A stretch of 64,000 bases of DNA from Candidatus Thorarchaeota archaeon. GTDB taxonomy: Archaea > Asgardarchaeota > Thorarchaeia > Thorarchaeales > Thorarchaeaceae. Both the position numbers and the translations under genes were made by a program. Of the stretch, positions 16,568 to 16,928 are shown piece after piece; within the stretch, counting starts at the first letter, position 1, and the number at the start of each line of letters is the position of its first letter. The DNA lies in assembly GCA_019057475.1 (NCBI GenBank), contig DXJO01000007.1:32001-96000 (forward strand), in the 5' to 3' direction. The notes under the pieces are model-generated. The model was given only the letters and a program-made list of their open reading frames with translations. It was not told the DNA's origin and did no database searches.

Positions 16568-16669
16568 TTACCTTCTGTAGGCAAAAGCGTAAGAAACCGC
16601 TTCAGTAGACTGAACCTTTGCGATCTTCTTCAGCACGGATGAATCTCGATTGTTTGATGCTAGGGCCAT
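16568..16669 (-). CDS. Small peptide, 33 aa (MALASNNRDSSVLKKIAKVQSTEAVSYAFAYRR)
   Basis: Paralogue of 16821-16928 with many synonymous differences. AGGAGT RBS and TTTATATA box upstream. Confidence 0.8.
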   Translation of the reverse strand: MALASNNRDSSVLKKIAKVQSTEAVSYAFAYRR

Positions 16670-16731
16670 ACTATCATACTCCTAAGTTTGTGTGCCAAAC
16701 CTTTCTGTAGTCCATGGCTTGCACATAAGTC

Positions 16732-16748
16732 TATATAAAGGTTTTCTC
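16732..16748 (-). promoter_or_regulatory. Archaeal BRE/TATA for the 33-aa peptide gene
   Basis: Minus strand reads AGAGAAAACC-TTTATATA, about 65 nt upstream of the ATG. Confidence 0.6.
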
Positions 16749-16820
16749 TCCAAACCATATCCTGTGTAATCGTCTGGAGTTAAAACCCAATCATTCACTT
16801 ATCAGACACCTCTACACAAT

Positions 16821-16928
16821 CTACCTTCGGTAGGTGAATGCAAAGCTGATTGCTTCAGTTGACTGGATCTTCACGATATTCTTGTTCTTGAGCGCTGACG
16901 AGTTCCGGTTGTTAGTTGCTAGAGCCAT
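16821..16928 (-). CDS. Small peptide, 35 aa (MALATNNRNSSALKNKNIVKIQSTEAISFAFTYRR)
   Basis: Paralogue of 16568-16669. TTATATA box at about 16960-16966. Confidence 0.8.
   Translation of the reverse strand: MALATNNRNSSALKNKNIVKIQSTEAISFAFTYRR

Follow-up and report, generated by a model that had tools for sequence, protein, structure and literature searches.

A multicopy micro-protein family of Thorarchaeaceae with three conserved putative promoter architectures and a linked subclade of MFS transporters

Described small-protein systems and the Thorarchaeaceae locus

AcrZ and SgrT are small proteins that modulate transporters, AcrZ acting on AcrB. The alpha/beta-type small acid-soluble spore proteins (SASPs) are small, multicopy, dispersed and co-regulated, and combine a variable N-terminus with a conserved helical part. 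In Rgg/SHP systems of the RRNPP type, a short gene for a peptide with a basic N-terminus is divergent from the gene for a TPR regulator, and the operator lies beside the peptide promoter. The leaderless multi-peptide bacteriocins, among them aureocin A70, garvicin KS and enterocin L50, are tandem homologous cationic peptides of ~30-45 aa that are patchily distributed, amphipathic and encoded beside ABC exporters. An archaeal small-protein modulator of a transporter has also been described, sP36 of Methanosarcina mazei, which acts on AmtB1 (PMC10714827).

The locus analysed here lies in a 64,000-nucleotide stretch of a Candidatus Thorarchaeota genome (contig DXJO01000007.1, positions 32,001 to 96,000; hereafter the window) and encodes two short basic peptides upstream of two MFS transporter genes. 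Like sP36, AcrZ and SgrT, the peptides are shorter than 70 aa, missed by annotation and co-regulated with a transporter. They have, however, no family-database match to these modulators, are multicopy and mostly unlinked to transporters, and include no pump-specific class; binding to a transporter would be proposed by analogy. With alpha/beta-type SASPs and ribosome hibernation peptides the family shares its architecture and multicopy dispersal, but its members are about half as long and are organized in an A-B-C operon, and here too nucleic-acid binding would be an analogy. The peptides have no Pfam or NCBIfam match to the SASP sequence family, and we know of no sporulation in Thorarchaeota; what suggests that they may bind DNA in dormant cells is their charge and copy number. 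The likeness to Rgg/SHP consists of a divergent regulator gene in 26 of 30 loci, class I palindromes at the peptide promoter, and the basic N-terminus. In contrast to Rgg/SHP, the regulator is PH1932/ArsR-like rather than a TPR protein, a hydrophobic export segment is absent (mean best 9-residue Kyte-Doolittle hydrophobicity of 0.83), one motif is common to paralogues and genera, and many copies have no receptor. Tandem, homologous, cationic and leaderless peptides are a feature shared with the leaderless bacteriocins, from which the family differs in being hydrophilic (GRAVY -0.66) and in consisting of near-universal core genes (84 of 85 genomes); no ABC exporter is among its recurrent neighbours. 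The locus works like the small-protein arm of a regulon and falls outside the RiPP, RRNPP, leaderless bacteriocin and SASP classes. What it adds to these precedents is a stack of three promoters and a clade-specific, non-stoichiometric link to MFS genes.

The peptide genes and their family

An earlier sequence-only reading of this DNA had proposed that two short minus-strand ORFs, here peptides 1 and 2 (Table 1), are paralogous genes under selection on the peptide itself. Both ORFs are present with the translations it gave. Identity, put at 24-25 residues, was counted as 24 of 33 aligned positions (73%), and 12 of these 24 residues are specified by differing codons, including Ser AGC/TCT, in agreement with the dozen it had claimed. 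The single indel is 6 nt long and keeps the frame. As it had also stated, the flanks do not align; they represent two different conserved promoter types, with TATA boxes where the reading had placed them and an AGGAGT ribosome-binding site for peptide 2 at ~16678-16683. TATA spacing suggests a leader of ~10 nt for peptide 1. The pair gave pN 0.153 and pS 0.745, the latter near saturation, and the proposed dN/dS check returned 0.17-0.48 across ortholog and paralog sets, not near 1. Conserved start, stop and frame, together with dN/dS below 1, bear out coding under purifying selection. The DNA of the locus has no Rfam match, and a structured-RNA reading is disfavoured because the synonymous change points to selection at the protein level. 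In a chance check of the source genome, identity of at least 50% was reached by 9 of 10,577 neighbouring short-ORF pairs, two of which are this micro-protein family and most of the others repeat-like. Two neighbouring Cys-rich ORFs of ~28 aa on the minus strand of contig C11, also at least 50% identical, may instead be repeats within a larger gene, read out of frame.

Table 1. Features of the peptide-MFS locus, in window coordinates
Feature	Position	Strand	Basis
Peptide 1, 35 aa, A-type family member	16821-16928	minus	ORF translation, family profile, dN/dS
Peptide 2, 33 aa, A-type family member	16568-16669	minus	ORF translation, dN/dS
Possible decayed third peptide frame, 39 aa	16356-16475	minus	Sequence; A, V, Y and RR at motif spacing
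Class II promoter (putative): GTCACA-N3-TGTGAC palindrome, GTGAC/GTGGC repeats at 13-bp spacing, TATA 16959-16966	16959-17015	minus	Motif comparison
Class I promoter (putative): GGTTTG-N5-(C/A)AAACC palindrome abutting TATA 16732-16739	16732-16756	minus	Same type at core locus
Second class I palindrome, downstream of TATA	16685-16701	minus	Motif comparison
Class III promoter-like element: GGTCAC repeats, weak TATA, GTGACCA	16502-16560	minus	Before MFS1
MFS1, peptide- and promoter-linked MFS subclade	14917-16365	minus	Pfam MFS_1 above cut-off
MFS2, paralogue of MFS1	13213-14724	minus	Pfam MFS_1 above cut-off
Insertion, ~2.4 kb	17045-19457		Absent from three same-genus relatives

Both window peptides are A-types, each with its own promoter class, and neither a B nor a C peptide accompanies them. 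The AlphaFold model of peptide 1 has a helix at residues 24-33 (block pLDDT >80); the exact sequence of peptide 2 is present, unnamed, in protein collections. The frame behind the class III element is possibly a decayed third peptide, and its RR codons form the Shine-Dalgarno sequence of MFS1; we propose it tentatively because the frame is broken in one relative and the family HMM gives it no score.

The profile search across Asgard genomes that had been suggested found the family in 84 of 85 other Thorarchaeaceae genomes, with 1-15 matches each (43-sequence profile). A related profile matched 74 of 76 Thorarchaeaceae genomes versus 1 of 224 other Asgard genomes, the latter marginally (E 0.003); the genomes are related, and these counts, like the promoter and MFS counts below, are not independent. 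Further copies in the source genome lie on contigs C37, C51 (running on into C48/C50), C46 and C21. A near-identical unit of ~500 bp, comprising promoter and A-B-C cassette, occupies the ends of C37 and C51 and the starts of C48 and C50, that is, two unrelated sites at which the assembly breaks; the sequence of these copies suggests recent duplication or gene conversion.

Family members are 28-38 aa long (mean 32 aa). A conserved MAL start is followed by a variable, basic N-half and then by the C-terminal motif (S)T-x-A-[ILV]-x-[YHF]-A-[YF]-x-[YR]-R-R, which is conserved across genera and loci and predicted to be helical; the aromatic motif positions also accept H, R, L, T and V. Given a net charge of +5.4 and the GRAVY and hydrophobicity values above, the peptides have no signal h-region or export segment. 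Among 1.84 billion database representatives the search found 57 clusters, and in each the protein is short or terminates with the motif. The family's usual operon runs A-B-C: two basic peptides are followed by an unrelated acidic C peptide ending EVLxxEAT, and the terminal Arg (RR) codons often double as the Shine-Dalgarno sequence of the next gene. Amber read-through from B into C was considered and rejected, because B and C are in different frames at 7 of 29 junctions, the stops vary, the source genome has no PylS match, and the two B-C fusions in the database are gene-calling artefacts of reading TAG as Q. AlphaFold modelling of the B-C read-through product gave two helices whose packing is not confident (pTM 0.32).

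The claim that the family is undescribed stood up in the searches made. The window peptides belong to no described family in Pfam; NCBIfam, PHROGs, the PDB and the ESM Atlas returned no family matches, and paper searches found no description. PDB profile matches to IL-21 and to a transcriptional regulator had E-values of 1.8 or worse and were set aside as chance, and likenesses to the PIP box, HbYX, WH2/beta-thymosin and organelle transit peptides were dropped as their defining positions are not conserved. Neither the libraries nor the papers searched describe the family, which on sequence evidence is near-universal and multicopy in Thorarchaeaceae.

Promoters, regulators and the linked transporter genes

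The upstream regions of the family fall into three conserved architectures, classes I-III, whose position and conservation mark them as probable promoters or operators. In the window they form a stack: peptide 1 is preceded by class II, peptide 2 by class I and MFS1 by class III. Within the source genome, class I scores well only at the core locus (see below) and before peptide 2, and class III stands upstream of MFS1, of a large GNAT gene and of the peptide operon on C46. The core pattern of class II is present in 82 of 86 family genomes, with 0 for reversed-pattern controls, and a short form precedes a bactofilin-domain gene and a membrane-protein gene. The large GNAT gene (L225:2959-6264, and near 59000 of C40 in the source genome) encodes a protein (1102 aa in L225) whose N-terminal GNAT domain is followed by uncharacterised sequence. 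It carries class III, sometimes also class II, elements. An exact 15-bp class II palindrome without the TATA part was also noted at 81834 of C8, ~300 bp upstream of a small membrane-protein gene.

At the core locus, which is near-universal, the peptides adjoin and are divergent from a wHTH gene (~250 aa, mostly single-copy; C21:20712-21542 in the source genome); the 26 of 30 loci given above refer to this wHTH, and the arrangement is also found in the low-copy genomes G024, G009, G016 and G021. The regulator combines the wHTH with a small helical domain and is related to ArsR/HTH_20-like clusters and to PH1932 of Pyrococcus horikoshii, its nearest solved relative (PDB 1uly, E 4e-5); it has weak PadR/HTH_20 matches and no TPR/RRNPP match. 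Complex prediction of the regulator dimer with its peptide scored 0.01, a value that speaks neither for nor against binding. Adjacency suggests that this divergent, PH1932-like regulator binds the class I operator. A close homologue of this regulator (44%) in another Asgard family (L178), possibly there through transfer or bin contamination, has no adjacent peptide. The candidate regulator of classes II and III is an HTH_45 protein, highly conserved and near-universal in Thorarchaeaceae, whose gene (C42:339139-339450 in the source genome) usually precedes the bactofilin-domain gene; in most genera the latter stands behind it under the class II motif, as at L216:4787-6451 (C42 in the source genome), where the bactofilin-domain protein (PF04519) has 415 aa. 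HTH_45 and the class II pattern are both missing from genome G021; G009 also lacks the pattern, and its HTH_45 is the most diverged of all. Because HTH_45 is near-universal in the family, its co-occurrence with class II has little power; adjacency and these two genomes are what point to HTH_45 as the protein that may bind classes II and III. PF04519 is the family of the halofilin/bactofilin proteins (PMC11459167), and in the papers searched neither these nor PH1932 is linked to micro-peptides.

Downstream of the peptides and co-oriented with them lie the two paralogous MFS genes that the reading had described, which are 59% identical to each other; their closest relatives are from Candidatus Thorarchaeota, in keeping with its Asgard attribution. 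For MFS1, a GTG at 16356 is the probable true start. The 190-bp gap upstream of MFS2 lacks all three promoter classes. Directly downstream of MFS2, on the same strand, a 272-aa protein with a C-terminal double zinc ribbon is encoded at 12330-13148. MFS homologues were compared as a close set, at least 57% identical to the window genes (n=31), and a distant set, less than 52% identical (n=28). Peptides are encoded within 1.3 kb upstream of 21 of the 31 close homologues versus 0 of the 28 distant ones, and one of the three promoter classes precedes 28 of 31 versus 0 of 28. The linked homologues fall mainly in one subtree, and the link spans at least six genera. An early sample of 37 loci, 6 of them linked, had been taken to mean that the MFS gene is an incidental neighbour; that sample was dominated by an unlinked MFS clade, and the family-wide search overturned this view.

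Linkage is nevertheless loose. Across homologous loci the number of peptides upstream of an MFS gene varies from 0 to 4, and several MFS homologues keep the promoter stack where the peptides have been lost. About two-thirds of the peptide cassettes (46 of 70) have no co-directional downstream gene; an MFS gene follows 16 of the 70, and these belong to two different families. The second of these, DHA3/Mef/EntS-like, often begins 2-100 nt behind the peptide operon and has a sub-threshold match to a ryptide export MFS model. MFS matches in the genome number about 25-30. Peptides linked to MFS genes are 48% identical across genera, versus 53% to unlinked peptides and 60% within their own genome, in a comparison of limited power (11 genomes, 35-aa sequences); by this measure they form no distinct sequence class. 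Genomes G009 and G021, 95-97% complete, contain peptides and no match to this MFS family. The variable peptide number, the promoters retained without peptides, the unlinked cassettes and the lack of a pump-specific class indicate that the link is one of shared regulation, not of fixed pairing. Of the peptide-transporter module that the sequence-only reading had inferred, the synteny with an MFS subclade therefore held and the dedicated pairing did not, the core locus lying beside the wHTH gene; its layout of two peptides to two transporters is present in the window and is not kept at homologous loci.

The insertion in Table 1 is bounded by a 9-bp direct repeat (17036-17044 and 19449-19457), lies ~30 bp upstream of the class II promoter, and contains transposase fragments that have relatives elsewhere in the genome and a weak DDE_Tnp_1 match. 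A 219-aa ORF within it (17815-18474) has a signal-like N-terminus and no Pfam match. Elsewhere in the window, at 7101-11293, candidate topoisomerase VI-like A and B genes were recognized by eye; the candidate A subunit (705 aa) is extended at its N-terminus by a long Lys-rich segment and contains two helix-hairpin-helix-like repeats.

Possible functions of the peptides

Common promoters group the peptides with the MFS subclade, the bactofilin-domain gene, the membrane protein and the large GNAT gene. We favour, tentatively, the explanation that the peptides are intracellular, dosage-amplified effector micro-proteins of a small, conserved regulon for stress or dormancy, whose main product they would be. 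The same conserved helix at every locus, the high copy number, the missing export segment and the co-regulated non-export genes are compatible with a dosage-driven binder of an abundant, conserved partner, and the basic tail suggests nucleic-acid machinery as that partner. The signal would be envelope or chemical stress, or entry into dormancy. After removal of Met the peptides would remain in the cytoplasm, where the N-capped C-terminal helix, through its A-I-x-x-A-Y face, could dock on one conserved, abundant partner while the Lys/Arg-rich disordered N-half binds a polyanion. The likeliest partner would be the ribosome or the chromosome, as for hibernation factors or SASPs. Extra gene copies would provide a higher dose and more inputs, the acidic C peptide may tune the basic ones, and the MFS pumps would be co-induced effectors rather than a dedicated peptide partner. 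The two MFS families behind 16 of 70 cassettes, however, also fit export or control of transporters.

Export is an unlikely explanation, yet several features suit it. The A and B peptides, whole or as a 13-residue C-terminal part, would leave the cell through the co-regulated MFS proteins as signals or leaderless antimicrobials, with C and the GNAT giving self-protection and the divergent regulator closing an Rgg/SHP-like feedback loop. A basic N-half joined to an aromatic C-half, the divergent regulator, two linked MFS families, one of them with the ryptide-type match, and the tandem arrangement of homologous peptides, known also from aureocin A70 and enterocin L50, all agree with it. On the other hand, the family is near-universal with one motif and no pherotype-like divergence, the peptides are hydrophilic with no h-region, the regulator has no TPR/RRNPP match, genome scans found no co-regulated peptidase or ABC exporter, and a transporter is missing from most cassettes. 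A still weaker prospect, which we regard as very improbable, is that the peptides are RiPP precursors that the MFS proteins export after modification in trans, for instance by aromatic or Arg-Tyr cross-links. The conserved Y-x-Y-R-R end, the multiple precursors, the linked MFS and GNAT genes and the few radical SAM-like proteins that a motif scan revealed at other places in the genome would be in keeping with such precursors. The leader-plus-core structure that the sequence-only reading had offered fares poorly, however, since the conserved part is the C-terminal helix and the N-half is variable, with no conserved leader beyond MAL. Furthermore, no maturase, radical SAM-type or other, is adjacent, among the recurrent neighbours or among promoter-sharing genes (as regards modifying enzymes, only GNATs share the promoters), the aromatic positions are permissive, and the terminal Arg codons overlap Shine-Dalgarno sites.

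Direct regulation of the MFS transporters by the peptides, as sP36 acts on AmtB1 or AcrZ on AcrB, is decidedly unlikely. In its favour are a gene order that would allow co-transcription, seen in six or more genera and confined to a single MFS subclade, and the archaeal precedent (PMC10714827). This is offset by the range of 0-4 peptides per MFS gene, by promoters kept at MFS homologues without peptides, by linked peptides that resemble each other across genera less than they resemble unlinked ones, and by G009 and G021, where the peptides exist without this MFS family. We consider it quite improbable, too, that the peptides feed back, as ligands or anti-repressors, on the wHTH regulators controlling them. 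The core locus of peptide and divergent regulator, retained even in low-copy genomes, and a short terminal helix suited to docking on the helical domain fit such a role; against it, one regulator gene per genome faces up to 15 peptide matches under other promoters, and coevolving cognate pairs are not seen.

Alongside the intracellular effector explanation, we regard a wider reading of the whole programme as possible though doubtful. In a hidden programme common to the whole class of Thorarchaeota, two wHTH regulators and three stacked promoter types would drive a multicopy system of three peptides along with the efflux pumps, a bactofilin and an acetyltransferase. The peptides would then be a novel sort of archaeal effector, either a dormancy or developmental system that binds chromosome or ribosome, or the first Asgard peptide signalling with a non-RRNPP receptor and MFS export. 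Little is yet known of regulation in Asgard archaea, and the annotations of these genomes omit most small proteins. The sharply defined operators give a directly testable regulon, with two candidate regulators, three motifs and named targets, among archaea that stand near the root of the eukaryotes, and the family is a lineage-specific marker for Thorarchaeota. Should the peptides be signals or dormancy effectors, they would represent biology of a kind that has yet to be described in Asgard archaea.
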